NCBI GenBank assembly: GCA_038211965.1
Contig: JBBQVB010000001.1
Location: forward strand, 29,361-93,360
Reading direction: 5' to 3'
DNA: 64,000 nucleotides
Source of the DNA: Sphingomonadales bacterium
GTDB lineage: Bacteria > Pseudomonadota > Alphaproteobacteria > Sphingomonadales > Sphingomonadaceae
This document shows positions 1 through 16,985 of this stretch, piece after piece. Positions within the stretch are counted from its first letter, which is position 1; the number at the start of each line of letters is the position of its first letter. Both the position numbers and the translations under genes were made by a program. The notes below the pieces were generated by a model that saw nothing but the letters and a program-made list of their open reading frames with translations, did not search any database and was not told where the DNA came from.

Positions 1-26
1 GGCAACCCCCCGAGGACTGCCTGACG

Positions 27-2876
27 GTGCCGCTGCCGCTCGCGTCGGTGCTCGGCCCGCCCGATCCGGGTTACCCGCTGCGCGAGCGCCGTCGGGCCGA
101 AGTCGATACGCGCCACGCCAGCCTCGACAACCCGCAAGCCATCGCCGCGCACGACACGCTGCGCCTGCCGCCGCGCGAGTCGGCGTTCGTCGTCGGGCAG
201 GATGGGCAACTCTGGCCGGGGACGGCGATCAGCGCCTGCCGCTCGAACAACGGCGGTCGCCTCGATGTCGCCCCGCGCGCCTATTTCGGGCGCGCGCTCG
301 AAGGCGACACCGCCGTCCTGCCGACGCGCGCGCGGCCGCGCTGGCAGCGTCTGCGGCTGCCCGGCGCGGGGCGCGAACTCCTTGCCGCGCCGGCTTATGC
401 GATCGAGGAAGTGCGCAGCCAGAGCGACGGCATCGACAAGACGCTGGTCGCCTTCCCCGCCATCGTCGGGGAGCGCGTCCCCGGCCGCAGCCGCGAGCCC
501 GATGCCGTGCTGGTCAGCGCCGGGGTGCTGCGCAGCCTGCTGGTGCCGGTGCTGCCGCCGACCGAGCGCTTCATGGTCGTCGATCTCGGCGATCCCGGCC
601 TCGAAGTGCTCTTCCACTCCGACCGCCAGCGCGTCCACTTCGAACATGCCGCCCGCGAACTCAAATCGCCCAAGCTCGCCGCGATCCTGACGCGCCTGCG
701 CGGCCCGAAGGCAGCCGACGACGGCCCGCCGGCGCTGACCTCGACCTACGACGGTGCCCGCCAGCATTTCGGGCTGGCGCGGCTGCCGTTCACCAACTGG
801 GCGATCCTCGCGTGGCATTCGCACGACAGCGCCGACGCGGTGCCGGCGCAGGTATTGCTCGCGACGATGATGAGCTTCTCGGCGCTCGTCGTCGCGGTGT
901 GGGGCGTGCCCGCGCTGGTGCTCGCGGCGCTCGGCAAGGCGCGCTGGGGGTGGCTGTGGCCCGATGCGCGCATGCGGGGGGCGTACAACCGCCTGGGAGG
1001 CGCGCTGGCGCTGACGGCGGCATTGGGGGTGCTGTTGCTGCTGCTGTGGCCTGCCGGGCCGCTGTGGGCCGCGCTGGCGTGCTGGGCGGGGGGTCTGGCG
1101 AGTGGCATCGTCGTGCTGCGCGGGCCAAAGGGCGCGGGTGGACCGCTGCGTCCCGATACCGCGCGCGCCTATCGCAACGCCGTCGTCGCCGCACTGGTGA
1201 CGATGGTCGCGGTGCCGATGATCGCCGTCCACGCCGACGCGGCGCGCTTCGGGCGGCGCAGCGTCGACACCGATGCGCGCATCGGCCTCGATGCCGGGCT
1301 GGCGGCGCGCACGGCGGCAACGGCGGCGATCTCGAACGTCTATTTCTCCGACCTGCGCGCCGCGCGCCGCCGCGTCCTCGCGCCGACCGATCTGACCGGG
1401 GTCGCGGCGGGGTGCTGGCGACCGCTGCCCGATGCCGAGCGCGACACCGGACTGGCGCAGCGGCTGTTCAGGGGCCTGTATCACGGTCCCGCGCCCGGCG
1501 CATCGACGGTGACCCCGGCGCTCGCGGCGCTGGCGTGTCCCGGCACGTCGCTCGCGCTCGGCAGCCTGGCGACCTTCGCCGAGCCGAAGATCGAATGGGA
1601 GTCGGGGTCGCTGGCGCGCGTCGTGTGGATCGTCGTCGTCGTCGGCCTCGGTCTCGGGTTGCTGGGTGCGGCACTGGCCGTGATCCTCGAGCGCCTGTTC
1701 GGCCTCGCGACGCCGCTCGAAGCCGTGACCTACCCGCCGCTGGCGCTGTCGGACGATTTCGCCGCGCTCGTGCTACCGCCCAAGGTGATGATCGTCCGTC
1801 CGCCGCTGGGCCTCAGGAACCAGCTGTTCGACCACGGCCACCGCATCGACCTGTCCGACGAGACGCTGACGCCGATCGCCGGGCCGCAGGTGACGCCCGC
1901 CTGGGCACCGCCGCGCCACTACATCCTCTACAATCTCGAGCTGACGCTGCGCGAGCCCGAGCGGCGGCGCGCGGCGCTGCGGTACATCGAGAAGCTCGTC
2001 GAGAAGCCGGGGGTGCGCGACGGCACGACGACCCTCGTGCTCGTCGCCGAACTGACCCCGCTCGAGCGCCTGCTGCAGGCCTATGAGCACGAGAAGATCG
2101 CCGCGCAGACCGACGAGGGCCGCGACCTCGAAGCGATCCGCCGCCAGCGCGAGGACATCCGCTGGTCGAAACTGCTCGAGGATTTCCAGACCTTCATCTT
2201 CGGCTCGGTGGACAAGCTGATCCGCGCGCCGCGCACGGGAGAAACCGCGGTCGAGACGGCGGTGATCGGCGAGCTGGCGGGGCTTCCCGAACACGTCATC
2301 GCGACGCTGCTGCCGGCGGGAACGCCGATTCCGGTGTCGATGTCCCTGCGCACCACCGCCGCTTATGACGCGCTGTACCGCGACCATGTGCTCGGCTTCG
2401 CGCGCGACCTGCATGCCGCCAGCCCACAGGCGGCGATCGATTTCATCGGGCTGATGCTGATCGAACATTATCAGCAGCTGTGGTCGGCCTCGTCGCGCGC
2501 CGAGCAACTTGTGCTGCACAACCTGAGCATGCGGCGCATCCCGAGCATCGCGGCGCGCGACGCGCTGAAGTCGCTGATCCGGCGCGGGCTGGTTGCCTAC
2601 GATCCCGTGCCGCGCCTGTTCAACGCGAGCTTCGCGGCGTTCGTCCAGCACGCCGAGCGGCCCCAGACGTTGCAGCGCTGGAAGGCCGATGCGCCCAAGG
2701 GTGGCTGGCGTTTCGCGGTCTGGCCGCTGCTCATCATCTTGCCGCTCGGGCTGCTGCTCCTCGGCGGCGCGATCCTCGACTCCGGGCAGCCGCTGGTTGC
2801 GCTGCTGCCGCTGCTCGTTGCCACCGGCCCGGCTTTGTTGCAGGCTCTGGGTGTCTTCCGAAAGGCTACGACGTGA
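27..2876 (+). CDS. Large multi-pass membrane protein with a Cache-like N-terminal sensor region; function unknown. First gene of a 3-gene cassette and probably 5'-partial.
   Basis: The ORF starts with GTG at 27, but the frame stays open to the window edge. Residues ~75-260 resemble a Cache fold (DVAPRAYFGRALEGD, YAIEEVRSQSDGIDKTLVAFP, VLFHSD). There are about five hydrophobic helices between aa ~274 and ~555 and two more at aa ~894-945. The soluble region at aa ~560-890 ends in a wHTH-like stretch (LSMRRIPSIAARDALKSLIRRGLV). No GxxxxGK[ST] motif was seen. Confidence 0.6.
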   Translation: MPLPLASVLGPPDPGYPLRERRRAEVDTRHASLDNPQAIAAHDTLRLPPRESAFVVGQDGQLWPGTAISACRSNNGGRLDVAPRAYFGRALEGDTAVLPTRARPRWQRLRLPGAGRELLAAPAYAIEEVRSQSDGIDKTLVAFPAIVGERVPGRSREPDAVLVSAGVLRSLLVPVLPPTERFMVVDLGDPGLEVLFHSDRQRVHFEHAARELKSPKLAAILTRLRGPKAADDGPPALTSTYDGARQHFGLARLPFTNWAILAWHSHDSADAVPAQVLLATMMSFSALVVAVWGVPALVLAALGKARWGWLWPDARMRGAYNRLGGALALTAALGVLLLLLWPAGPLWAALACWAGGLASGIVVLRGPKGAGGPLRPDTARAYRNAVVAALVTMVAVPMIAVHADAARFGRRSVDTDARIGLDAGLAARTAATAAISNVYFSDLRAARRRVLAPTDLTGVAAGCWRPLPDAERDTGLAQRLFRGLYHGPAPGASTVTPALAALACPGTSLALGSLATFAEPKIEWESGSLARVVWIVVVVGLGLGLLGAALAVILERLFGLATPLEAVTYPPLALSDDFAALVLPPKVMIVRPPLGLRNQLFDHGHRIDLSDETLTPIAGPQVTPAWAPPRHYILYNLELTLREPERRRAALRYIEKLVEKPGVRDGTTTLVLVAELTPLERLLQAYEHEKIAAQTDEGRDLEAIRRQREDIRWSKLLEDFQTFIFGSVDKLIRAPRTGETAVETAVIGELAGLPEHVIATLLPAGTPIPVSMSLRTTAAYDALYRDHVLGFARDLHAASPQAAIDFIGLMLIEHYQQLWSASSRAEQLVLHNLSMRRIPSIAARDALKSLIRRGLVAYDPVPRLFNASFAAFVQHAERPQTLQRWKADAPKGGWRFAVWPLLIILPLGLLLLGGAILDSGQPLVALLPLLVATGPALLQALGVFRKATT

Positions 2877-2886
2877 GGCAGCGCTC

Positions 2887-5800
2887 ATGATGAGTCTCGA
2901 CGCCGCGAAGCCCGTCGACGGCCTGCTGGTCAAGCTGCGCCGCGCCGACGCTGCCGGGTTCGCCGTGGCCAACCGGATGGCGATGGGCGGCAGCGCGACG
3001 CCCGAGGTCATCCTGACCGTCCCCGCCGCCGCCGCTGCCGAGCGCGGTTTCGCCGATCACCCGAACGACGCCGTGTGGGCGCGGATGGCGAGTGGGGCCA
3101 ACGCGTGGGACGACGCGCACCGCATCATGCGGCAGGGCTTCGCCGCGGCGAGCGGGGTCATCGCCGCCGAGCCCGATCTCGGGCAGGTCTGGCGGAACGG
3201 CGAGGCAGATGCGCCGGGGCTGGGCGTGGCAGCCGACGACCGCTGCTCGCTCCGGCTCCAAACCGACGCGGGCGGGCGCGCCATCGGCCCCGGCTCGGCA
3301 TGGCACCGCGGCGACGCCTTCTCGGGACTGGCGAGCGCGGCGGCGCAGGTCGGCGACGCGGCACAGCGCGGGGTGCGGATCGCGCATCTCGATACCGGCT
3401 ACGACCCCGCGCACAGCGCGCGCCCGGCGCACCTGCTGACCGGGCGCGAGGCGAATTTCGTGACGGGCGAGGGCGCCGCCAACTCCGCTGCCGACGTGAC
3501 GCCGACGGGCGGCATCCCCTTCACCCGCGCGCGCGGCCACGGCACCGGCACCTTGTCGATCCTCGCCAGCCCGCAGTTCGGCGGCGCGCCGGGGGCGGAG
3601 ATCGTCGCCGTCCGCATCGCCGACGGCGTCGTGCGCTTCTCGACCTCGACGATGGTGCAAGGCATCGAGCACGCGCTGGCGAACGGCGCGCAGGTGCTGT
3701 CGATGAGCATGGGCGGGTACGCCGGCGGCGCGCTCGCCGATGCGGTCAACAAGGCCTACGAGGCCGGACTGACGATGGTCACGGCAGCGGGCAACAACTT
3801 TGCCGGGCTGCCGATCCGCTCGGTGGTCTATCCGGCGCGGATGCGGCGCGTCATCGCCGCGACGGGCACGATGGCCGACGGGCGGCCCTATTTCGATCTC
3901 GTCGCGCCGACGATGCAGGGCTGCTGGGGTCCAGACCTCAAGATGGCGACGGCGCTCGCGGGTTTCTCGCCGAACATCCCCTGGGCGGCGTTCAAGTGCG
4001 GCGATGTTGTCCACGAAGACGGGCAGGGCACCAGCGCCGCGACGCCGCAGGTCGCCGCGGCGGCCGCGCTGTGGATCGCGCTGCACCAGGGCGATCCCGT
4101 TTATCAGAGCTATTCGCAGGGTTGGATGCGTGTCGAGGCGGTGCGCCGCGCACTGTTCGCCGCAGCACGCAAGACGACTGCCAAGCTCGATGCGGCGGGG
4201 GTGCTTCATTTTCTCGGCACCGGCGCGCTCGATGCGCTGGCGGCGCTCGCGGTCGGGCCCGCCGCTGCGTCGGGTCTGCGCGCGGAGCCGCCCGCCAGCG
4301 CGGCATGGGCATGGGTCAAGCTGCTGTCGGGCGAAGGCGTCGGCTTCGCGCTTGCCAGCGCGCCGCGCGCCAATGCGCTCGGTCTCGAACTGATGCAGCT
4401 GGCGCAGCGCACGCCCGAGATCGAGGCGGCGCTGCTGGGCGGCGGCGGCGACCCCGACGGCGCGCTGCCCGAGGCGAACCGCAAGGCATTCTTCGAAGCC
4501 GTCCTCGATAGCGGCGCGGCCTCGCAGTTGCTGACCACCGCGCTGACGCGGAGCCTCGGGCTGCGCGACGCGGCCCCGCCGCCGGCACCGCCGCCGCTGC
4601 CCGGCACCGCGCCGTTGCCGGGGCAGGTCCGCATGGCGCGCCGCGACCCCGTCCCCGCGCAGCGCCGCCTGCGCGTCTTTGCGCTCGACCCGAGCCTCGG
4701 GGCGTCGCTCGATACCGTCGCGATCGGCCTCGCCACGGTGAACATTCCCTACGAGACCGGCGAAGACGGCAAGTCGATCCTGCGCCCCGGCCCAGTCGGC
4801 GAATATCTCGAGGTCGTCGATGTCGATCCGGCGTCGGACCGCGCCTACGATCCCGTCGATCTCGACCACCCGCACCTGCTGATCTCCGACGGGCTCGAGC
4901 CGTCGGAGGGCAACCCGCGCTTCCACCAGCAGATGGTCTACGCCATCGGCATGAAGACCATCGGCCACTTCGAGGCCGCGCTCGGGCGCAAGGCGCTGTG
5001 GGCGCCGCGCCGCTACCGCCGGGGCATCGCGTCGCGCTTCGAATATGTCCAGCGCCTGCGCATCTACCCGCACGCGCTGCGCGCCCAGAATGCCTATTAC
5101 AGCCCATCCAAGGTCGCGCTGCTGTTCGGCTATTTCCCCGCCGCGTCGGCGCGCACCGACGCGACGGTGCGCGGCTCGATGGTGTTCTCATGCCTCAGCG
5201 CCGACATCGTCGCGCACGAGATGACCCACGCGCTGCTGGACGGCGTCCACCGCCACTACCAGGAGGCGTCGAACCCCGACGTCGGGGCGTTCCACGAAGG
5301 TTTCGCCGACATCGTCGCGCTGTTCCAGCATTTCACCTACGGCGACATCGTCAGCGCCGAGATCGCCCGCGCGCGCGGCGAGATCGGCGCAGCGCGGCTG
5401 CTGTCTGGCCTCGCGCGCCAGTTCGGCGAGGGGGCGGGCAAGGCGGGGCCGCTCAGGGACTATATCGACCCGGCAACCGGCACGCTCGACTATAGCGCGA
5501 CCACCGAGGTCCACAGCCGGGGGTCGATCCTCGTCTTCGCGATCTACGAAGCCTTCGTCGCCATCGTCGAGCGTCGCACCGGCGACCTCATCCGTCTCGC
5601 CACCGGCGGCACCGGCGTGCTGCCGGCGGGCGACCTCCATCCCGGCCTCGTCACGCGGCTGACGCGCGAGACTTGCAAGGCCGCGTCGCAGGTCCTGCGG
5701 ATCTGCATCCGCGCCATCGATTATTGCCCGCCCAACGACATCACTTTCGGCGAGTATCTGCGCGCGCTGCTGACCGCCGATGTCGACCAGGTGCCCGACG

Positions 5801-6528
5801 ACCGGCTCGGCTACCGCACCGCGCTGCTGCAGGCGTTCCGCAAGCACGACCTGCTGCCGCCGCGCCTGCGTACCGTTTCGATCGAGTCGCTGGTCTGGCG
5901 GCACCCGATCGATCCCCACCCGCCATGGTTTGCCGACGCGGTGCGCGACTTCGCGATCGACTGGGCGAATAATTCCGACCGCTGGACGTCGTTCAAGCTC
6001 GTCGAGCAGCGCCGCTTCGACCTGCAGCTGCGGCTGAAGCAGGTGTTCGCCGACGACCCCGGCGTCGCCGCGAGCTTCGGGCTGCAGCACGGCCTGCCGC
6101 GCTACGGCGAGGACGGCATCGCGATCCCCGGCGAGACCGAAACCTGCTTCAGCGTCCACAGCCTGCGCCGCGTGCGTCGAGTCCGTCCCGACGGCGAGGT
6201 GGCGAACCAGATCGTCGCAGTGATCGCGCAGCGCCGCGCCGAACCCGTCGATCCGGCAGTCCCGATCGACAAGGACGACCCCAACAGCTTCTTCTGGTTC
6301 CGCGGCGGCGCGACGCTGATCATCGATCCCGCCGTGTCGGGCAGCTACCCGCCGCGTGCCGAAATCCGCTATTGCGTCGTCAAGCACATGCTCAGCACCG
6401 ACCGGCTGGCGCGCCAGCGCGCGATGGCGGGCGGCCCGGCGACCGGCCTGCGCGCGCAATATTTCGACACCCGCGCGCTCGCCCGCCGCGAGCCCTTCGC
6501 GATGCTCCACGCGGAGGACCCGGCATGA
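2887..6528 (+). CDS. Fusion protein: subtilisin-like S8 serine peptidase domain plus thermolysin-like (HEXXH...E) zinc metallopeptidase domain. No signal peptide.
   Basis: ATG at 2887 with GAGG 8 nt upstream, 10 nt after the previous stop. S8 motifs: HLDTGYD (Asp codon 3391-3393), GHGTGTLS (His 3538-3540), GTSAATPQVAA (Ser 4033-4035). A Pro-rich linker (APPPAPPPLPGTAPLPG) follows. The metallopeptidase motifs are HEMTH (5215-5229) and HEGFAD (Glu 5296-5298). Confidence 0.8.
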   Translation: MMSLDAAKPVDGLLVKLRRADAAGFAVANRMAMGGSATPEVILTVPAAAAAERGFADHPNDAVWARMASGANAWDDAHRIMRQGFAAASGVIAAEPDLGQVWRNGEADAPGLGVAADDRCSLRLQTDAGGRAIGPGSAWHRGDAFSGLASAAAQVGDAAQRGVRIAHLDTGYDPAHSARPAHLLTGREANFVTGEGAANSAADVTPTGGIPFTRARGHGTGTLSILASPQFGGAPGAEIVAVRIADGVVRFSTSTMVQGIEHALANGAQVLSMSMGGYAGGALADAVNKAYEAGLTMVTAAGNNFAGLPIRSVVYPARMRRVIAATGTMADGRPYFDLVAPTMQGCWGPDLKMATALAGFSPNIPWAAFKCGDVVHEDGQGTSAATPQVAAAAALWIALHQGDPVYQSYSQGWMRVEAVRRALFAAARKTTAKLDAAGVLHFLGTGALDALAALAVGPAAASGLRAEPPASAAWAWVKLLSGEGVGFALASAPRANALGLELMQLAQRTPEIEAALLGGGGDPDGALPEANRKAFFEAVLDSGAASQLLTTALTRSLGLRDAAPPPAPPPLPGTAPLPGQVRMARRDPVPAQRRLRVFALDPSLGASLDTVAIGLATVNIPYETGEDGKSILRPGPVGEYLEVVDVDPASDRAYDPVDLDHPHLLISDGLEPSEGNPRFHQQMVYAIGMKTIGHFEAALGRKALWAPRRYRRGIASRFEYVQRLRIYPHALRAQNAYYSPSKVALLFGYFPAASARTDATVRGSMVFSCLSADIVAHEMTHALLDGVHRHYQEASNPDVGAFHEGFADIVALFQHFTYGDIVSAEIARARGEIGAARLLSGLARQFGEGAGKAGPLRDYIDPATGTLDYSATTEVHSRGSILVFAIYEAFVAIVERRTGDLIRLATGGTGVLPAGDLHPGLVTRLTRETCKAASQVLRICIRAIDYCPPNDITFGEYLRALLTADVDQVPDDRLGYRTALLQAFRKHDLLPPRLRTVSIESLVWRHPIDPHPPWFADAVRDFAIDWANNSDRWTSFKLVEQRRFDLQLRLKQVFADDPGVAASFGLQHGLPRYGEDGIAIPGETETCFSVHSLRRVRRVRPDGEVANQIVAVIAQRRAEPVDPAVPIDKDDPNSFFWFRGGATLIIDPAVSGSYPPRAEIRYCVVKHMLSTDRLARQRAMAGGPATGLRAQYFDTRALARREPFAMLHAEDPA

Positions 6529-7916
6529 CACACGTCAGCGCGCGCCTCTATTGCCACGGCCTCGGCGACTGTTCGCTGCTCGGGGTCGCAAAACCCGACG
6601 GCGGGACCTTCTGGATCCTCATCGATTGCGGCATCCACACCTCGGCGAAGGGCGGACCGGCGATGATCGACCGCGTCGTCGCCGATATCGCGACCCATGT
6701 CTCGGTCGGGCTGGCCCCCGGTGTCCGCCCGCGCCTCGATGTCGTCGTCGCGACGCACGAGCATTGGGACCATATCTCGGGCTTCACCACGGCGGCAGAG
6801 GGCTTCGCAAAGTTCGATGTCGGCGCGGTGTGGCTGGCGTGGACCGAGAATCCCATCGACCCGCAAGCGCAGGCGCTCGACAAGTTCAAGGGGGAGGGGC
6901 TGGCGGCGGTCGCGCAGGCTGCCGACCGGCTGCGCGCCGACCCCCGCTCCCAGGCGCTCGCCGACGGCCTCGAGGCCCTGCTCGGCTTCAACTTCGGTGT
7001 CCGGGGCGAACGCTCGCGCGACGCGCGCAATGCCGTCGTCGCGCTCGCGCCGCTGAATTTCCACTATCTCGAACCCGGCAGCGTCGCGCCGCTGCCCCCC
7101 GAGCTCGGCGTTACCGCCTATGTGCTGGGACCGCCGCGCGATGCCGCGCTGCTCGGCATCAAGGACAGCGTCAGCGACACCTACGGCTTCGGGCTGAGTC
7201 TCAACAACAGCTTCGCGCTGGCCGACGGCGACATGGGCGTCGATGACGACCCCGGTGCGCCGTTCGACGAGACCGAGGGTGTCGCGCTGTCGGCGCTGGG
7301 TAACGCACCGGCCAAAGTCGGCAGCGTCGCGGCGTTCGTCCGCGATCACTATAGCGGTCGCACGCGCCCCGACATGCTGCCGCCGATCAAGGAGGACGAC
7401 CCCGACAAGCCGACGCGCGACCAGGCATGGCGGCGCATCGACAGCGACTGGCTGGGGGCGTCGGCCGAACTGGCGCTGCAACTCGACGCGCGGACCAACA
7501 ACACCAGCCTCGTGCTGGCGTTCGCGCTAGCACCGCCGCCGGTGCCGCCCGCTGGCGGGACCGGCGACGTGCTGCTGTTCGCCGCCGACGCGCAGGTCGG
7601 CAACTGGCGCAGCTGGGCCAAGGTAGTGTTCGCCGACGGCACCACCGGCCCCGACCTCGTCCGCCGCACGCGCTTCTACAAGGTCGGCCACCACGGCAGC
7701 GCCAACGCGACCCTGAAGCCCGGCGGCCTCGAAGCGATGGTCCACCCGGCACTCGAAGCTTTCATCCCGACCGACGAGGCGATGGCCAAGCGCGTCGGCT
7801 GGGGCGCGATCCCCGAACCCGCGCTGCTCAAGCGGCTCGGCGAGAAGGCGAGCGGTCGGGTGGTGCGCTCGGATGACGTGGGGGGCGTGCTCTTCGTCGA
7901 TAGGGAGTTCACCTAA
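6525..7916 (+). CDS. Metallo-beta-lactamase-fold hydrolase, ComEC/Rec2-like subtype (putative nuclease/hydrolase).
   Basis: The ATG at 6525 overlaps the upstream TGA (ATGA). Motifs: ILIDCG, the THEHWDH metal motif (His 6756, His 6762, Asp 6768, His 6771) and the late motif YKVGHHGS (7689-7700). No signal peptide. Confidence 0.75.
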   Translation: MTHVSARLYCHGLGDCSLLGVAKPDGGTFWILIDCGIHTSAKGGPAMIDRVVADIATHVSVGLAPGVRPRLDVVVATHEHWDHISGFTTAAEGFAKFDVGAVWLAWTENPIDPQAQALDKFKGEGLAAVAQAADRLRADPRSQALADGLEALLGFNFGVRGERSRDARNAVVALAPLNFHYLEPGSVAPLPPELGVTAYVLGPPRDAALLGIKDSVSDTYGFGLSLNNSFALADGDMGVDDDPGAPFDETEGVALSALGNAPAKVGSVAAFVRDHYSGRTRPDMLPPIKEDDPDKPTRDQAWRRIDSDWLGASAELALQLDARTNNTSLVLAFALAPPPVPPAGGTGDVLLFAADAQVGNWRSWAKVVFADGTTGPDLVRRTRFYKVGHHGSANATLKPGGLEAMVHPALEAFIPTDEAMAKRVGWGAIPEPALLKRLGEKASGRVVRSDDVGGVLFVDREFT

Positions 7917-7918
7917 CT

Positions 7919-7960
7919 CTCTTCCCCCTCCCCGCGCAGCGGAGTGGGGGGAGGGGAGGA
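7919..7960. repeat. REP-like C-run/G-run hairpin between convergent genes; likely a bidirectional terminator.
   Basis: CCCCTCCCC (7925-7933) pairs with GGGGAGGGG (7948-7956) around a 14-nt GC loop. It sits in the 48-nt gap between the MBL gene stop and the cysS stop. A related copy lies at 29581-29625. Confidence 0.55.
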
Positions 7961-7964
7961 ATGA

Positions 7965-9284
7965 TCAGGCCCGCCGCCAGCTCGTGCCCTGCGGCCCGTC
8001 CTCGAGCACTATCCCCTGCGCCGCGAGGTCGTCGCGTATCCGATCGGATTCGGCAAAATCCTTGCGCGCGCGGGCGGCGGTGCGGGCGCCGACGAGGTCG
8101 TCGATCCCTGCGTCCGGCGCCGCTCGCGTCGGTTCGAGCAACCCCAGCATCGCCAGCGCCGCGCGCATGCCGCCGATATCGCCGAGACGCGACAGGCGCG
8201 CGATAGCGGCGACGACGGCGGGCGTGTTGAGATCGTCCGCCAGCGCGGCGATGACGCGCTCCGGCACCGCCGCCTCGTCGTCCTCCGAGCGGCGCACGAA
8301 GCCCTGCCAGCGGTCGAGCGTCGCCTTGGTCTGTTCGAGGAGCGTTTCCGTCCACTCCAGCGGCTGGCGGTAATGCGCGCTGAGCAGCGCCAGCCGTAGG
8401 ACTTCCCCCGACCACCCCGCCGCCAGCAAATCGCCGACCAGCGCAACATTCCCCAGCGACTTCGACATCTTCTCGGTCCCCATGCTGAGGAAGCCGTTGT
8501 GCATCCAGACCTGCGCGAGCGGTGCGCCGTGGTTGGCGCAGGCCGATTGCGCGAGTTCGTTCTCGTGGTGGGGGAAGATCAGGTCGAGCCCGCCGCCGTG
8601 GATGTCGATGGTTTCCCCCAGCACGGCGCGGATCATCGCCGAGCACTCGATATGCCACCCCGGTCGTCCGCGCCCCCACGGGGATTCCCACCCCGGCTGG
8701 TCGTCGGCACTCGGCTTCCACAGCACGAAATCGGCGGCACCGCGCTTGTACGGCGCAACCTCGACGCGCGCGCCAGCGATCATCTCGTCGAGGCGACGGC
8801 CCGACAGCCTGCCGTACTCGGGAAAGGCCGCGACATCGAACAGCACATGGCCCTGCGCCGCATAGGCGACGCCGCGCGCGATCAGCTCGCCGATCATCGC
8901 GACCATGCCGTCCGCGCCCTCGACGAACGCGGTGGCGTGGGGTTCGATGTCGGGGGCCTCGACGCCGAGTGCTGCCATATCGGCGCGGTAGTGGTCGGCG
9001 TAGCGCGCGGTGACCTCGCCGATCGGCACGCCCTCGGCCTCGGCCTTGGCGATGATCTTGTCGTCGATGTCGGTGATGTTGCGCGCGTAGACTACCTGGC
9101 GCTCGGGGTAGGTGTGGCGCAGCAGGCGGCGCAGCACATCGAACACCACGGCGGGGCGGGCGTTGCCGATGTGCGCGCGATTATAGACCGTCGGGCCGCA
9201 GACATACATCGTCACGCGGCCGGGCTCGCGCGGCGTGAAGTCCTCCTTGCGGCGGGTCAGCGTGTTGTAGAGGCGTAGGCTCAC
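7965..9284 (-). CDS. cysS: Cysteine--tRNA ligase.
   Basis: [19 protein letters not shown] (HIGH-type motif) and KMSKSLGN. I chose the GTG start at 9284, which overlaps the cvpA stop (GTGA). The longer ORF N-terminus looks spurious. Confidence 0.9.
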
Positions 9285-12132: not shown

Positions 12133-13794
12133 ATGGCGCAATTTTGGCTGAAAATCATCGGCGTCGCTGCGCTGGCGCTGGACATCGCCGCTCCAGCCGC
12201 CGCATCGCCGCCGCCCCGCCCGAAGCTCGTCGTCGCGATCTCGCTCGACCAGTTCAGCGCGGCGCTGTTCGAGCAGTATCGCGGGCGCTTCACCGGCGGG
12301 CTGAGGACGCTGCAGGACGGCGTCGTCTACCCCAGCGGCTATCAGAGCCACGCCGCGACCGAGACCTGCCCCGGCCATTCGACGATCCTGACCGGCCGCC
12401 ACCCGGCCGCGACGGGCATTGTCGCCAACCAGTGGTACGACAGCGACCAGGGCGCGCAGGTCTATTGCGTCACCGATCCCGCCGGTCCGGTGCCGGGGCG
12501 CGATAGCGTCGCGCGCGGCCCCGCCAACCTCAAGGTCCCGACGCTCGGCGAGTGGCTCAAGGCGGCGAGCCCCGCCAGCCGCGTCTACGCCGTGTCGGGC
12601 AAGGACCGCGCCGCGATCACCATGGCGGGGCACAACCCCGACGGGGTGTTCTGGTGGGACGACGAGCTGGCGTTCACGACCTCGGTTCCGGCCGGTACGA
12701 CGGCGGCGAAGCGCCTCGAACCTGTCGCGGGCTTCAATGCGGCGCTGATCAAGCGCTGGCAGGTCAAGCCGCCGGTCTGGACCAGGCTCGACGCGCGCTG
12801 CGTCGCCAGCGGCACCGACAAGTTCGGCGACCTGACGATCGCGCACAGCATTCCGCCGATGGGCTATGAGGGTAGCTGGAACGATCCCGCCAACCTCAGA
12901 TATTTCCGCGCCTCGCCGGGCATGGACGAGGTGACGCTCGACATGGCGACGGTGCTGCTCGACCGCTTTAAGCTCGGGCGCGGGACCGCCCCCGACGTGC
13001 TGGCGATCAGCTTGAGCGCGACCGACTACGTCGGTCACCGCTACGGCAACGAGGGCGTCGAGATGTGCGACCACCTCGCCCACCTCGATCGCGCGCTCGG
13101 GGTATTTCTGGCGAAGCTGACCGCGCTTAAGATCCCCGTCGTCGTCGCGCTGACCGCCGACCACGGCGCGGTCGATGCCGCCGAACGCGTCGCGGCGCGC
13201 GGCGTCGCGGCCAAGCGGCTGGGCGGCGAAGCCTTCGCCGACATCGGCAAGGCGCTGCAGGAAGAATTCAAGCTCGACTATTTCCCGCTCGCGGGCGACG
13301 CGCAGCAGGTCAGCATCGCCGGCTTCGGCGAGCGCGACGCGGCGCTCGATGCCAGGATCGCTGCGTCGGCGTTGGCGCGCTTCAAGGCGCGGCCCGAGGT
13401 CTACGCCGCCTTTTCCCGCGCCGAGGTGGTCGCCGCCGCGCCACGCCCCGGCACGCCGGTCGACGAATGGACGCTCGCCGAGCGCTTCCATGCCAGCTTC
13501 GACGCGCAGCGTAGCGGCGATATCGCGGTCGCCTACCGCCCCTATTCGACGGGCTCGCTACCGCAGGCGTTCGGCGACACCGTCGCGGGCCACGGCTCAC
13601 CATGGAACTACGATCGCCGCGTGCCGATGATCTTCTGGTGGCCGGGCGCGAGCGGCTTCGAACAGCCGCTGCCCGTCGAGACGGTCGATATCGCACCGAC
13701 ACTCGCGGCGCTGCTCGGGGTGAAGACGACGACGGTGGACGGGCGATGTCTCGATCTCGACGTCGGGGCGGGGGACAGTTGCGCGGCGAACTGA
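12133..13794 (+). CDS. Alkaline phosphatase superfamily / nucleotide pyrophosphatase-phosphodiesterase-like secreted enzyme.
   Basis: ATG at 12133 with GGGAGA upstream. Signal peptide MAQFWLKIIGVAALALDIAAPAAA. Motifs ISLDQF..., TETCPGHSTILTGRHP and LTADHG are typical of the NPP/AlkP family. Confidence 0.75.
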   Translation: MAQFWLKIIGVAALALDIAAPAAASPPPRPKLVVAISLDQFSAALFEQYRGRFTGGLRTLQDGVVYPSGYQSHAATETCPGHSTILTGRHPAATGIVANQWYDSDQGAQVYCVTDPAGPVPGRDSVARGPANLKVPTLGEWLKAASPASRVYAVSGKDRAAITMAGHNPDGVFWWDDELAFTTSVPAGTTAAKRLEPVAGFNAALIKRWQVKPPVWTRLDARCVASGTDKFGDLTIAHSIPPMGYEGSWNDPANLRYFRASPGMDEVTLDMATVLLDRFKLGRGTAPDVLAISLSATDYVGHRYGNEGVEMCDHLAHLDRALGVFLAKLTALKIPVVVALTADHGAVDAAERVAARGVAAKRLGGEAFADIGKALQEEFKLDYFPLAGDAQQVSIAGFGERDAALDARIAASALARFKARPEVYAAFSRAEVVAAAPRPGTPVDEWTLAERFHASFDAQRSGDIAVAYRPYSTGSLPQAFGDTVAGHGSPWNYDRRVPMIFWWPGASGFEQPLPVETVDIAPTLAALLGVKTTTVDGRCLDLDVGAGDSCAAN

Positions 13795-13877
13795 TCGCGG
13801 CGCCCCCACCGCCTTGAAACCGTTGCGCCGCCGCCGCCGAAACGCCTAGCATCGGTACCTGCCCGGGGGCTTCGGCG

Positions 13878-16193
13878 ATGCGCGAGAAGGAATTGCGGCT
13901 GGCGCTCGTCTGCTACGGCGGCGTCAGCCTCGCGATCTACATGCACGGCATCACCAAGGAGGTGTGGAAGCTGTTGCGCGCCTCGGCCGCGCGCGCCGCA
14001 CCGGGTGAGGCGATGCCGGTGCCCGATACCGAGGCGGTCTACCGCGACCTGCTCGACGCGCTCAGCCCGCATCTCGAACTGCGCGTCCTGACCGATATCG
14101 TCGCGGGCGCGAGCGCCGGGGGGATCAACGGCATATTGCTCGCGCACGCTATCGCGGGCGGGCACGACATGGAGCCGCTGCGCGACCTGTGGCTCGGCGG
14201 CGCCGATATTGAAAAGCTGCTCGAGCCGATGGGGGCCGCGACGCGCTTCAGCAAATGGTGGGCGGGGCCGCTGGTATGGTGGGCACGGCGGCGCGGTATC
14301 GGCCTGAATGACATGAGCGAGCCCGAGGTGCAGACCGAGGTGCGCGCCAAGCTGTCGAAGCTGATGCGCTCGCGCTGGTTCCACCCGCCGTTCTCGGGCG
14401 CGGCGTTCACTGCGATGCTCTACGACGCGCTGGCGGCGATGGAGGCGGGCAAACGCGGCCCCGCACTGCTCCCCGCCAGCCAGCCGCTCGACCTGTTCGT
14501 CACCGTCACCGATTATCACGGCGCGCCCGACCATCTGCGCCTCCACTCGCCCCCCGACATCGTCGAGACCGAACACCGGCTGGTCATCGCATTCAACGCC
14601 CCCGGTGCGGCGGCGGGAGAGGGTGGTGCGCCTCGGCGCAGCCTCGGCCACCGCGCCGAACTGGCGTTCGCGGCGCGCGCCACGGCGTCGTTCCCGGGCG
14701 CGTTCCCGCCGGCACGGGTCGCCGAGGTCGATACCGTCGTCGCGACGCGCGGCGACCGCTGGCCGGGGCGCGAGGCGTTCCTGGCACGGTTGTTCCCGCA
14801 GCGCGGCGGCGACTATGCGGGCGCAACGCTGATCGACGGCAGCGTCCTCAACAACCGCCCGTTCGGCCCCGCGATCGAAGCGCTGCGCCATCGCCCCGCG
14901 CATCGCGAGGTCGATCGCCGCTTCGTCTACATCGACCCCAAGCCCGGCGGCCACGACCCCGGTATGGGCAGCGACTCCGCGCTGCCGGGGTGGTTCTCGA
15001 CGGTGCTGCGCAGCCTTGCCGACATCCCGCGCGAACAGCCGATCCGTGACAACCTCGCGGCGATCGAGGCGCTGTCGGCAAAGGTCCGCCGTCTGCGCTT
15101 CGTCGTCGACGGCATGACCCCGGCGGTCGACGCGGCAATCGAGGGCGCGGTCGGGGCACGTTTCTTCCTGTTCAAACTGACCCCCGAACGCCTGTCCGAC
15201 TGGCGCTCGCGGACCCAGACGGTGGCGGCGCGCGAGGCGGGTTTCGCCTACGCCGCCTATGGCCAGCTCAAGCTCAGCCATGTCGTCGAGAGCGCTGTCG
15301 AGCGAATCGTCGCGCTCGGCGGGCATCTCCCCGCCGGGACCGACCGGGGGGTGCGCGCGGCGCTGTGGTCGACCGTCCATGCGCAGGGCGTCGATGCCGT
15401 CGATGCCGCGACCGGGCGCGACGGAGCATCGTCGGACTATGTGCTGTTCCTGCGCAATTTCGATCTCGGCTTCCGCATCCGCCGCCTGCGCTTTCTGATC
15501 CGGCGTCTCAACATGCTCGGCGTTGCCACGGCCGCGCTCAAGGAGCGACGTGCGGTCGAAGGCGTGAAGGCCGTGCTGTACACGATCCTCGCGCCCTATC
15601 TCGAGCGGCGGCGCGAGGCCTTCTACGACGATGCAGCACGGGCGGCGGCCAGGGACGCGGCGGCGGAACCGGCGGCGGCGCTCAAAGCGCTCGCAGCGGC
15701 AATGGACCTGCGTGCGCTCGACACCGCGAGCGACGCGGCGCTGGTCGGCCTGCTCGGTCCCGATCTGCCGACGCCGCTGCGCCGCGCGCTGCTGCGCGCC
15801 TATCTCGGCTTTCCGTTCTACGACATCGCGATGCTGCCGCAGCTCGAAGGCGACGGCATCGACGAATTCGATGAAATCCAGGTCGACCGCATCTCCCCCG
15901 ACGACGCCGTGGCGATCCGCAAGGGCGGGGCCGCTGCGACGCTCAAGGGCACGCAGTTCAACGCCTTCGGGGCGTTCTTCAGCCGCGCCTACCGCGAGAA
16001 CGATTACCTTTGGGGCCGTCTCCATGCCGCCGATCGGCTGATCGACATCGTCGTCTCGACGCTCCCCGAAGGCGTGTCATTCGATAGCGCGCCGTTCAAG
16101 CAGCGCGCCTTCCGCGCCGTGCTCGAGGCCGAACGACCGTTTCTGACAACGGTACCCGAGTTGCTCGCGAGCCTCGAACGCGAGATCGGCTAG
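13878..16193 (+). CDS. Patatin-like phospholipase with a long C-terminal extension (DUF3376-type architecture).
   Basis: LALVCYGGVSLAIYMHG (oxyanion region), GASAGGINGILLA (GxSxG serine) and IDGSVLNNRPFGP (DG dyad). Confidence 0.8.
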   Translation: MREKELRLALVCYGGVSLAIYMHGITKEVWKLLRASAARAAPGEAMPVPDTEAVYRDLLDALSPHLELRVLTDIVAGASAGGINGILLAHAIAGGHDMEPLRDLWLGGADIEKLLEPMGAATRFSKWWAGPLVWWARRRGIGLNDMSEPEVQTEVRAKLSKLMRSRWFHPPFSGAAFTAMLYDALAAMEAGKRGPALLPASQPLDLFVTVTDYHGAPDHLRLHSPPDIVETEHRLVIAFNAPGAAAGEGGAPRRSLGHRAELAFAARATASFPGAFPPARVAEVDTVVATRGDRWPGREAFLARLFPQRGGDYAGATLIDGSVLNNRPFGPAIEALRHRPAHREVDRRFVYIDPKPGGHDPGMGSDSALPGWFSTVLRSLADIPREQPIRDNLAAIEALSAKVRRLRFVVDGMTPAVDAAIEGAVGARFFLFKLTPERLSDWRSRTQTVAAREAGFAYAAYGQLKLSHVVESAVERIVALGGHLPAGTDRGVRAALWSTVHAQGVDAVDAATGRDGASSDYVLFLRNFDLGFRIRRLRFLIRRLNMLGVATAALKERRAVEGVKAVLYTILAPYLERRREAFYDDAARAAARDAAAEPAAALKALAAAMDLRALDTASDAALVGLLGPDLPTPLRRALLRAYLGFPFYDIAMLPQLEGDGIDEFDEIQVDRISPDDAVAIRKGGAAATLKGTQFNAFGAFFSRAYRENDYLWGRLHAADRLIDIVVSTLPEGVSFDSAPFKQRAFRAVLEAERPFLTTVPELLASLEREIG

Positions 16194-16208
16194 GCCGGCC
16201 GAACGCGC

Positions 16209-16985
16209 TCAGGTCAGGCCGCGCCGTTCGCTGCGGTAATAGGCGTAGCTGCAGGCGATCGCGGTGGCACCCAGCAGATGCCAGACGGCGTGGCCCTGGA
16301 CGAGGCTGTCGGGCGCGCAGACCTGCCGGGTATTGTCGAGGATCCAGATCCCGAAGGCGACCGCCTTCGCGGCGATCCCGGCGACGAACAGCCAGACGAT
16401 GACACCGGGCCGCCGGGGTCGCGCCAGCGCCATCTCGACGATGATCGCGACGATCAACAGAACGAGGAACAGGTAACGCCGCGCGTCGGGGACGACGTAG
16501 AGCAACGCGATCAACGCGGCGCAGAGGGCCACGTAGAAGATCACCGCCTGCTGCACCGTCAGGCTGCGCCACCGCGCCACGGCATACGTCAGCGCGAAGC
16601 CCGTCAGCAGGTACATGCCGACGACGTCGGCGAACTGCCCCCACAGGGTCAGCGTCGCGTGCAGCAAGGCGCTGCCGACGCCGATGACCACCGCGCTGAG
16701 ACCGTACCAGACGACTCCCGGCCCCGCGAATGCCGTTGCTGCGGCGGAACGCGTTGCCGACAGCATGATCCAGCTGCCGACCGCGACATAGCCGAACGAC
16801 GACCAGGTGTTCGCGGGCTGGAGCAGCAGGTCGCCACGCCGCGGCAGCTCGCAGAAACAATGCGTGGCGGTACACGACGCAGGCAAGTAGCGCGTCCAGT
16901 CGGGGCCGAGCAGACTGAGCACCGCAAGCGTCGCGGCGATCCACAGGATTGTCAGAACGGCGGTCTGCAGGGCGCGGCTGGTCAT
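16209..16985 (-). CDS. Seven-TM alkaline-ceramidase-like (CREST superfamily) membrane hydrolase.
   Basis: Multi-pass protein with conserved His/Asp positions (LLHATLTLWGQFADVVGMY, GHAVWHLLGA HxxxH). The assignment rests on motif resemblance only. Confidence 0.5.
   Translation of the reverse strand: MTSRALQTAVLTILWIAATLAVLSLLGPDWTRYLPASCTATHCFCELPRRGDLLLQPANTWSSFGYVAVGSWIMLSATRSAAATAFAGPGVVWYGLSAVVIGVGSALLHATLTLWGQFADVVGMYLLTGFALTYAVARWRSLTVQQAVIFYVALCAALIALLYVVPDARRYLFLVLLIVAIIVEMALARPRRPGVIVWLFVAGIAAKAVAFGIWILDNTRQVCAPDSLVQGHAVWHLLGATAIACSYAYYRSERRGLT

Follow-up and report, generated by a model that had tools for sequence, protein, structure and literature searches.

A subtilisin and thermolysin-like protease fusion encoded with a predicted protease-gated pro-nuclease in a Sphingomonadales bacterium

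The protease-gated modules described so far are HamM with trypsin-HamA-HamB, the metallo-beta-lactamase-fold (MBL) proteins associated with Avs1/2/4, and the caspase-nuclease system CanABC (Tuck et al. Science 2025, PMC12799240; Evans et al. bioRxiv 2025, PMC12642450). In the MBL pro-nucleases two insertions block the active site, and a double cut by the co-encoded protease converts the protein into a non-specific DNase; in the characterised systems the protease that cuts the MBL is the N-terminal domain of a larger sensor protein, and the characterised MBL homologues degrade DNA intracellularly (PMC12799240, PMC12642450). The pro-nucleases of this kind shown in 2025 are anti-phage death or abortive-infection effectors, and both phylogenies contain an uncharacterised MBL clade located beside subtilase or subtilisin-like proteases (PMC12799240, PMC12642450). 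Only since 2025 has nuclease activation by proteases been recognised as a recurring principle among the effectors of bacterial immunity. The proteases known so far to gate nucleases are trypsin-like and caspase-like, and the subtilase-linked clade is unexplored. Here we analyse a stretch of 64,000 nucleotides (nt) from a Sphingomonadales bacterium (contig JBBQVB010000001.1; hereafter the window; GC content about 70%), in which a single gene encodes a subtilisin (S8) domain fused to a thermolysin-like (M4-like) metalloprotease module and is followed directly by a gene for an MBL-fold protein.

On balance, our analysis makes it probable that this fusion gene encodes the protease of a two-gene cytoplasmic protease and pro-nuclease module, in which the S8 domain would be a swappable second effector or a tier of a cascade. 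The predicted MBL pro-nuclease encoded as its partner assigns the fusion protein to the immune modules with a protease-gated nuclease. A preliminary description of the fusion protein had proposed a cascade or dual-output role for it; this stays the most plausible kind of function, but the coupled MBL partner gene at 6525-7916 had been overlooked.

The MBL partner and its constant protease

The two genes and the landmarks of the partner protein are located as follows.
2887..6528, + strand: fusion gene of 1213 amino acids (aa), comprising N-terminal extension, S8 domain, linker, M4-like metalloprotease and C-terminal domain
6525..7916, + strand: partner gene, 463-aa ComEC-like MBL-fold protein, predicted protease-gated pro-nuclease (ATGA overlap, Pfam, PADLOC, fold)
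6756-6773, + strand: MBL motif HEHWDH
7689-7700, + strand: MBL motif HHGS
6843-7049, + strand: MBL insertion 1, aa 107-175, with the conserved loop motif LLGFNFG at 6978-6998
7137-7508, + strand: MBL insertion 2, aa 205-328, with APFD at 7257-7268

The start ATG of the partner gene overlaps the stop TGA of the fusion gene as ATGA, and the two genes are translationally coupled. Pfam recognises Lactamase_B and Lactamase_B_2 in the partner protein, no export signal is detected in it, and its sequence profile matches ComEC, CPSF, RNase J and Integrator-11 in the PDB. The AlphaFold2 model of the protein (predicted local distance difference test, pLDDT, of 84) has the MBL domain of ComEC as its top Foldseek match (9ic4, E 1.8e-8, target template modelling score 0.73), and since this alignment spans 471 columns against a target of 266 residues, about 200 residues are inserted in the MBL core. 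The HxHxDH and HHGS metal-binding motifs are shared with the ComEC nuclease domain. However, the partner carries these insertions in a soluble, stand-alone protein that lies outside any DNA-uptake channel.

Among 65 sampled members of the MBL family, PADLOC matches were obtained to LmuA in all 65 (best E 5.8e-18), to PDC-M48B in 56, to RTasMBL in 52 and to Avs1a in 47. Comparison of the family with PflHamM, whose sequence was taken from Table S1 of Tuck et al. (PMC12799240), gave a probability of 84% and an E of 8e-6 in hhalign, and in a MAFFT alignment the core motifs GD(C/S), L(I/V)D(C/G)G, THxxxDH, (V/L)(L/I)GP(P/S)R and K(V/L)xHHGS match. The nuclease hidden Markov model (HMM) of Tuck et al. 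was seeded with HamM, Avs1a and LmuA (PMC12799240). By profile and fold comparisons the partner MBL is thus homologous to LmuA-H, Avs1a and the DRT-associated MBL, all of them gated nucleases. In the alignment both insertions occupy the same topological positions as the gating loops of HamM, although those of the window protein are longer and mostly helical. The motifs LLGFxFG and APFD are conserved and lie in loops where the pLDDT of the MBL model dips.

The window system shares with the HamM, Avs and CanABC modules a ComEC-related MBL nuclease homologue in an operon with a protease: the MBL is a homologue of HamM, Avs1a and LmuA, and it is encoded in an operon and co-inherited with a dedicated protease, both with and without S8. 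In contrast to those modules, the constant partner is a thermolysin-like zinc metalloprotease, and no STAND, Hachiman, Lamassu or other recognised sensor belongs to the system. The gene order at the window, protease followed by nuclease, is like that of Canu and unlike that of HamMAB. With the published subtilase-associated MBL clade, which may or may not be the same family, the system has in common an S8 domain in the neighbouring protein.

Comparison of loci indicates that the constant partner of the MBL is the thermolysin-like module, with or without S8. Directly downstream of the protease gene an MBL homologue is found in about 60 of 87 loci (L001-L087), and in L001, L002, L004 and L089 it is a stand-alone M4-like gene that precedes the same MBL family. 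Locus L001 is syntenic with the window, both containing cysS, cvpA, radA, TMEM175, a phosphodiesterase gene and a patatin gene downstream; the M4-like proteins of the two are 69% identical and the MBLs 59-62% identical, and the S8 domain is absent from L001. The same relation is seen in Pseudomonas, where the S8-less protein of L004 is 76% identical to residues 501-1253 of the S8-fused protein of L028 and the MBLs are 71% identical. The loop motifs LLGF and APFD are the same in MBLs that neighbour S8-fused and S8-less proteases. A genuine locus with S8 and MBL and without the M4-like module was not found among the loci examined. From the sequences compared, the pair of M4-like protease and MBL is the conserved core, with S8 as one of several interchangeable N-terminal modules; of the two proteases in one protein seen by the preliminary description, both sites are indeed intact, but they are unequal partners.

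These observations bear on the opposite possibility that S8 activates the MBL and that the thermolysin-like module is a sensor or regulator, its site serving for self-processing or S8 activation only, which we consider unlikely. The location of the MBL clade beside subtilisin-like proteases in two phylogenies (PMC12799240, PMC12642450) would suit such a role of S8, as would the domain order, which fits the characterised systems in which the N-terminal protease of a larger sensor cuts the MBL, and the invariance of the S8 triad. However, the pairing of the same MBL family with S8-less M4-like proteins, including close relatives of S8-fused systems, the lack of a genuine S8-only locus and the likeness of the loop motifs for both partner types all speak against it. 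In addition, all seven residues checked in the M4-like module, among them the catalytic Glu and the ligands of the zinc, are invariant, and a module that only senses would not be expected to show this.

Three loci were considered and rejected as S8-only cases. L090 and L091 are frameshifted fusions in other assemblies, and L006 (Beijerinckia indica, CP001016.1) is a deletion remnant. At 8001-10150 of L006, a 474-aa S8 gene is followed by a remnant of MBL residues 242-451 only, the metalloprotease apparently having been deleted.

Domains of the fusion protein

The domains and active-site residues of the fusion protein, all on the + strand, are distributed as follows.
2887..3351, + strand: N-terminal extension, aa 1-155, fold without match; motifs LLVK, W, PWDxAH and AEPD
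3352..4236, + strand: S8 (subtilisin) catalytic domain (Pfam PF00082, triad, subtilisin BPN' match)
3391-3393, + strand: S8 D169 in HLDTGYD, triad Asp
3538-3540, + strand: S8 H218 in GHGTG, triad His
3793-3795, + strand: S8 N303 in AAGNN, oxyanion Asn
4033-4035, + strand: S8 S383 in GTSAATP, triad Ser
4237..4686, + strand: helical linker region, aa 451-600, ending in a Pro-rich tether
4573-4623, + strand: Pro-rich tether APPPAPPPLPGTAPLPG, aa 563-579
4687..5886, + strand: thermolysin-like (M4-like gluzincin) catalytic core, aa 601-1000 (AlphaFold2 model, Foldseek, conserved residues)
5089-5106, + strand: NAYYSP edge strand
5215-5229, + strand: HEMTH, aa 777-781
5296-5298, + strand: E804 in HEGFAD, third-ligand Glu
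5308-5310, + strand: D808 in HEGFAD
5512-5514, + strand: H876
5887..6525, + strand: C-terminal beta-rich and helical domain, aa 1001-1213 (AlphaFold2 model)

The open reading frame (ORF) of the fusion gene runs uninterrupted from the ATG at 2887 to the TGA at 6526-6528, a GAGG lies 8-9 nt 5' of the ATG, and an independent gene call in a public NCBI assembly gives exactly this 1213-aa protein. Since single BLAST segments of homologues span the junction of the two domains (for example query residues 12-1014 with P0130 and 148-1208 with P0163), the gene is without frameshift, and an artefact of split genes or frameshifting is ruled out by these alignments together with the 80 full-length homologues described below. 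Sequence analysis therefore confirms a single polypeptide that carries two intact, mechanistically different endopeptidase sites, as the preliminary description had claimed, and every coordinate it gave for the S8 triad, the HEMTH/HEGFAD site and the Pro-rich linker is correct. Scans of the fusion protein and of its C-terminal half with Pfam, NCBIfam and PADLOC recognise S8 alone; the C-terminal half is a peptidase by fold, with no Pfam match. Proteins of this family are annotated today only as 'S8 family serine peptidase' or 'hypothetical protein'.

The absence of an export signal, also claimed earlier, is borne out. No signal peptide or transmembrane segment is present in the fusion protein, the maximum 19-residue Kyte-Doolittle hydropathy being 1.61, and 13 homologues have hydrophilic N-termini with neither signal-peptide-like nor transmembrane segments. 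From its sequence the fusion protein is probably cytoplasmic.

Conservation was assessed in 67 full-length fusion homologues from many phyla, compared with the window protein. Pfam Peptidase_S8 (PF00082) is matched at aa 161-446 with an E of 4e-25 and 89 bits, against a gathering cut-off of 21.8, over positions 2-288 of the 288 of the profile. The residues D169, H218 and S383 are each present in all 67 homologues and the oxyanion N303 in 65, and the nearest sequences in the PDB are subtilisin BPN' (the best, E 1.3e-13) and subtilisin Carlsberg. The full-length Pfam match above threshold, the Asp-His-Ser order of the triad and the oxyanion-hole Asn are thus common to the window domain and the subtilases, including BPN' and the intracellular subtilisins. 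Unlike these, the window S8 domain has no signal peptide, a second protease is fused C-terminally to it, and its N-terminal extension gives no detectable Inhibitor_I9 match. PADLOC models do not match the S8 domain of the window.

In the N-terminal extension L, W, W and E-P-D are invariant in the alignment, and profile searches of Pfam and the PDB gave no match for it. The extension may be a pro- or regulatory region of S8. An Inhibitor_I9 propeptide was considered, AEPD being suggestive of one, but a Pfam scan of 54 members and a PDB profile search did not support it.

The linker region is poorly conserved (0.29-0.33). It is also found without S8 in proteins of about 750 aa, and its HMM matches five representatives that consist of linker and M4-like module; P0082, the protease of locus L004, begins within this region.

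The C-terminal half was predicted to be thermolysin-like, and its model and its active-site residues agree with that. The AlphaFold2 model, built on an alignment of 74 sequences, has a pLDDT of 83 and a predicted template modelling score of 0.89, and its sole significant Foldseek match in the PDB is the M4 protease vibriolysin MCP-02 (3nqz_B, E 2.5e-4, probability 1.00, target template modelling score 0.60). The residues N735, H777, E778, H781, E804, D808 and H876 are present in all 67 homologues. The HExxH motif occurs once in the fusion protein, against 0.03 expected from composition. Because of the S8 E of 4e-25, this expectation and the invariance in the 67 homologues, the active-site motifs are more than chance. 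As a single sequence, the M4 protease aureolysin matches the stretch from HEMTH to HEGFAD, correctly placed but weakly (E 0.64), and in the profile of the metalloprotease family the stretch from NAYYSP to HExxH aligns with the corresponding strand and helix of ECE-1, an M13 enzyme.

With the M4 enzymes vibriolysin MCP-02, aureolysin and thermolysin the module shares the two-lobed gluzincin fold, the HExxH motif with the Glu of ExxxD, and an N-A-aromatic edge strand ahead of HExxH, and the invariant H876 in the helical lobe may correspond to His231 of thermolysin. The second His and the Glu are 20 residues apart in thermolysin, whereas the spacing from H781 to E804 is 23 residues. The Pfam M4 models PF01447 and PF02868 and NCBIfam have no match in the C-terminal half at E up to 0.1, and a profile search against the PDB gave no M4 match for the module. 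It also differs from the secreted M4 pre-pro-enzymes in that it has neither a signal peptide nor an FTP/PepSY propeptide, has about 210 extra C-terminal residues, and is predicted to be cytoplasmic and encoded in an operon with a nuclease homologue. Because the M4 sequence models fail and the secretion and propeptide apparatus is absent, the module is not classed as M4; judged on the modelled fold and the active site it is best described as M4-like.

In the C-terminal domain, model residues 489-566 form strands of high pLDDT, and the domain has no fold match in the PDB. No other part of the metalloprotease module is as poorly conserved, its identity to the window residue being 0.25-0.37 compared with 0.6-0.68 in the catalytic core, and the domain is a candidate sensor or specificity domain.

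Distribution, proposed mechanism and competing readings

The combination of two proteases had been regarded as unusual, and in the sense of rare this does not hold. In a scan of one genome per species, 595 relatives were confirmed, and the best 80 of these are all full-length fusions, so that the same domain order is present in at least 80 species. They span Alpha-, Beta-, Gamma- and Deltaproteobacteria, Acidobacteriota, Gemmatimonadota, Chloroflexota, Deinococcota, Verrucomicrobiota and others; a fusion 91% identical to that of the window is encoded in a metagenome-assembled genome of Sphingomonadaceae (L008). Relatives of the N-terminal half, if long enough, nearly always run on into the metalloprotease, and the shorter ones are truncated by contig ends.

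A profile of the metalloprotease module searched against 1.84 billion cluster representatives reveals a family of 5183 clusters (50% identity) at E up to 1e-3; 1608 of them are still matched at E up to 1e-30. This large family is without annotation in Pfam, NCBIfam or PADLOC. Among its best 150 representatives, 57 (about 38%) combine S8 with the M4-like module and 5 have linker and M4-like module only; about 75 are stand-alone proteins of about 650 aa and about 13 have another N-terminal region. The alternative N-terminal modules are a lipase-like alpha/beta-hydrolase (weak matches to DUF7379, Abhydrolase_6 and Tle3), Amidase_2 and TPR-S, and such a variable-effector pattern of the N-terminal slot is typical of conflict systems. 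The MBL family comprises at least 6021 clusters at 90% identity. Homologues of the protease were found in 46 plasmid records, 29 of them typed as conjugative. A phage origin was considered and rejected, only 6 distant relatives being found in 2.9 million viral contigs and no fold match in BFVD.

Individual members of the family show further arrangements. In P0385, P0406, P0413, P0428, P0411 and P0389 the S8 slot is filled by a DUF7379/Tle3-like hydrolase, Amidase_2 or TPR-S. Tandem thermolysin-like modules are present in P0358 (1194 aa) and P0359 (1202 aa), which have the M4-like N-terminal motif at their start and a second profile match at 567-1190 and 587-1201, respectively, and P0112 contains two HExxH motifs.

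In the mechanism that we propose for the module, a trigger, for which the poorly conserved C-terminal domain is the likely sensor, would cause the metalloprotease to cut both MBL insertions and so release a non-specific DNase. The candidate cut sites would be the flexible-loop motifs LLGFxFG and APFD. Thermolysin-type enzymes favour bulky hydrophobic residues at P1', and the two motifs are therefore compatible with such cuts. The S8 domain might be held latent by the 155-aa N-terminal extension and the Pro-rich tether and be freed or activated on firing; given its position in the variable N-terminal slot, it would most likely serve as an additional, exchangeable death effector or as a second tier of proteolysis. 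The expected result would be DNA degradation and broad proteolysis, through which the infected or stressed cell would stop growing or die.

Several observations weigh against this proposal. About a quarter of the fusion loci, mostly in Acidobacteriota and Gemmatimonadota, have no adjacent MBL, and the protease can therefore exist without it. The window locus sits among the housekeeping genes cysS, cvpA and radA, and a scan of 138 flanking ORFs from 39 chromosomal loci gave a handful of PADLOC matches, several of them generic-looking, with no consistent defence signal. Instead of disordered loops, the MBL insertions are for the most part helices that are modelled with confidence. The cleavage sites of HamM (between I118 and G, and between I218 and S) align onto LLGFxFG and APFD, but in a region of low similarity, so that the correspondence is suggestive only. 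Mirror-tree comparison with the MBL gave r of about 0.6 for every protease domain, with no discrimination between S8 and the M4-like module. No recognised sensor domain is present in the fusion protein or the MBL. Finally, phage defence, toxicity, MBL cleavage and DNase activity are predictions for the whole clade, derived from sequence and fold.

A more far-reaching version of the proposal, to which we give somewhat less than even weight, is that the locus represents a fourth, metalloprotease-based class of gated pro-nuclease immune module. The thermolysin-like protein would be sensor and initiator, the MBL a DNase activated in trans, and the N-terminal module (S8, lipase-like hydrolase or amidase) a swappable executioner, giving a two-gene, two-tier death cascade. 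The words metalloprotease, metallopeptidase and thermolysin are absent from the main texts of both 2025 papers and from the available supplements of Tuck et al., and full-text searches of the available literature found no description of a metalloprotease partner of an MBL nuclease. As far as text searches of the available papers reach, the metalloprotease partnership and the swappable N-terminal slot appear to be undescribed. If the proposal is true, intracellular thermolysin-like metalloproteases (about 5,000 clusters at 50% identity) would join the protease-gated nucleases as a new protease class, and the triggering of such proteases could be dissected in a compact two-gene system that has no known sensor. 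Two proteases wired into one polypeptide would be a possible bacterial analogue of initiator and executioner tiers. The published 'subtilase-associated' nuclease clade, if it is the same family as that of the window, would then in truth be a metalloprotease-associated one. Confirmation would also allow better annotation of the metalloprotease family.

Quite improbable, in our view, is that the fusion protein is a cytoplasmic housekeeping or stress protease, acting in turnover, peptide processing or maturation of the kind seen for ribosomally synthesised and post-translationally modified peptides (RiPPs), beside an unrelated or metabolic MBL and with no part in immunity or cell death. The chromosomal context, housekeeping or heterogeneous at the window and at most sampled loci, is in line with such a role, as are the fusions without an MBL neighbour (about 25%) and the oxidoreductase genes that recur upstream in some lineages. 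Weak NCBIfam matches of the S8 domain to the maturation proteases QhpE (36 bits, cut-off 165) and PatA/PatG (27 bits, cut-off 421) also point in this direction. However, these scores are far below the cut-offs and no precursor-peptide or biosynthetic neighbours are conserved among the loci compared, and a role in RiPP maturation was rejected on these grounds. Against the wider idea stand the consistent matches of the MBL to nuclease models of defence systems, the patchy distribution, which includes the 46 plasmid records, the variation of presence and domain content between related genomes, and the swappable hydrolase, amidase and TPR-S modules, of a kind typical of conflict systems.

Classical M4 enzymes, like most S8 proteases, are secreted, a point in favour of export. 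Nevertheless, non-classical export as an extracellular or inter-bacterial protease or toxin, possibly by way of an adjacent multi-pass membrane protein, is highly improbable: the membrane-protein gene ends 10 nt upstream and is probably co-transcribed, and some family members carry Tle3-like lipase or amidase domains also known from secreted toxins, but signal peptide and transmembrane segments are absent here and in the 13 homologues, the membrane protein occurs in only 1 of 87 other loci and nowhere in the plasmid collection, no secretion-system genes recur near the loci compared, and the partner MBL has no signal and has characterised homologues that degrade DNA inside the cell.

Neighbouring genes and further observations

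One gene precedes the fusion gene in the window.
1..2876, + strand: upstream multi-pass membrane protein gene, cut by the left window edge, at least 958 aa, frame open to base 3

Its stop lies 10 nt before the ATG at 2887, and the gene is probably co-transcribed with the fusion gene. The protein has six transmembrane-like segments and no Pfam, NCBIfam or PADLOC match. Among the 87 loci its only homologue is that of the 91%-identical L008, a 1375-aa ORF at 3877-8004. The gene is absent from the syntenic L001 and from the plasmid collection, and it was rejected as a family-wide component; its membership of the system is doubtful. Relative to L001, the membrane gene and the S8 N-terminal half together make up an indel of about 5.8 kb. 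A scan of 2600-8200 for promoters and terminators found none, a result that is uninformative at 70% GC.

Mobile or defence-like surroundings are seen at other loci. On the Rhizobium rhizogenes plasmid pColt5.8d (L089), a trio of patatin, M4-like and MBL genes lies between a cyclic-oligonucleotide-based anti-phage signalling system (CBASS) operon, an ImmA/IrrE and helix-turn-helix pair, and an AAA+HNH pair. The context of L003 resembles an integrative and conjugative element, with relaxase, VirD1, ParA, SSB and Toprim genes. Immediately upstream of the protease gene, five loci have a gene for a patatin phospholipase. A conserved third gene 3' of the MBL was considered and rejected, the proteins of about 300 aa found there in L002, L003 and L088 being mutually unrelated.

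In the window, a 771-aa ORF at 13878-16193 (+ strand), about 6 kb downstream, is 73% identical to the syntenic 766-aa Patatin+DUF3376 protein of L001. This ORF is probably unrelated to the module, and it is in other loci that smaller patatin genes directly accompany the protease gene.

Lipid- or oxidation-type enzymes recur upstream of the fusion gene in some lineages. In Mesorhizobium (L012, 458-7795, and 13 other loci) the upstream genes encode an adenylate-cyclase/TPR protein, a 1427-aa P450/Dyp-peroxidase-like protein and a Crp-type regulator. The genes at this place in Acidobacteriota, in some cases accompanied by a patatin gene, are for a RoxA-like cytochrome c protein and a GMC oxidoreductase, and lineage-specific upstream neighbours are also recorded for L047, L050, L045, L067 and L079. 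On the Rhizobium etli plasmid pRetIE4771e (L088), a second, different MBL-fold gene is located beside a MoxR-family ATPase gene at 13147-16398, a few kb downstream of the fusion and MBL pair.

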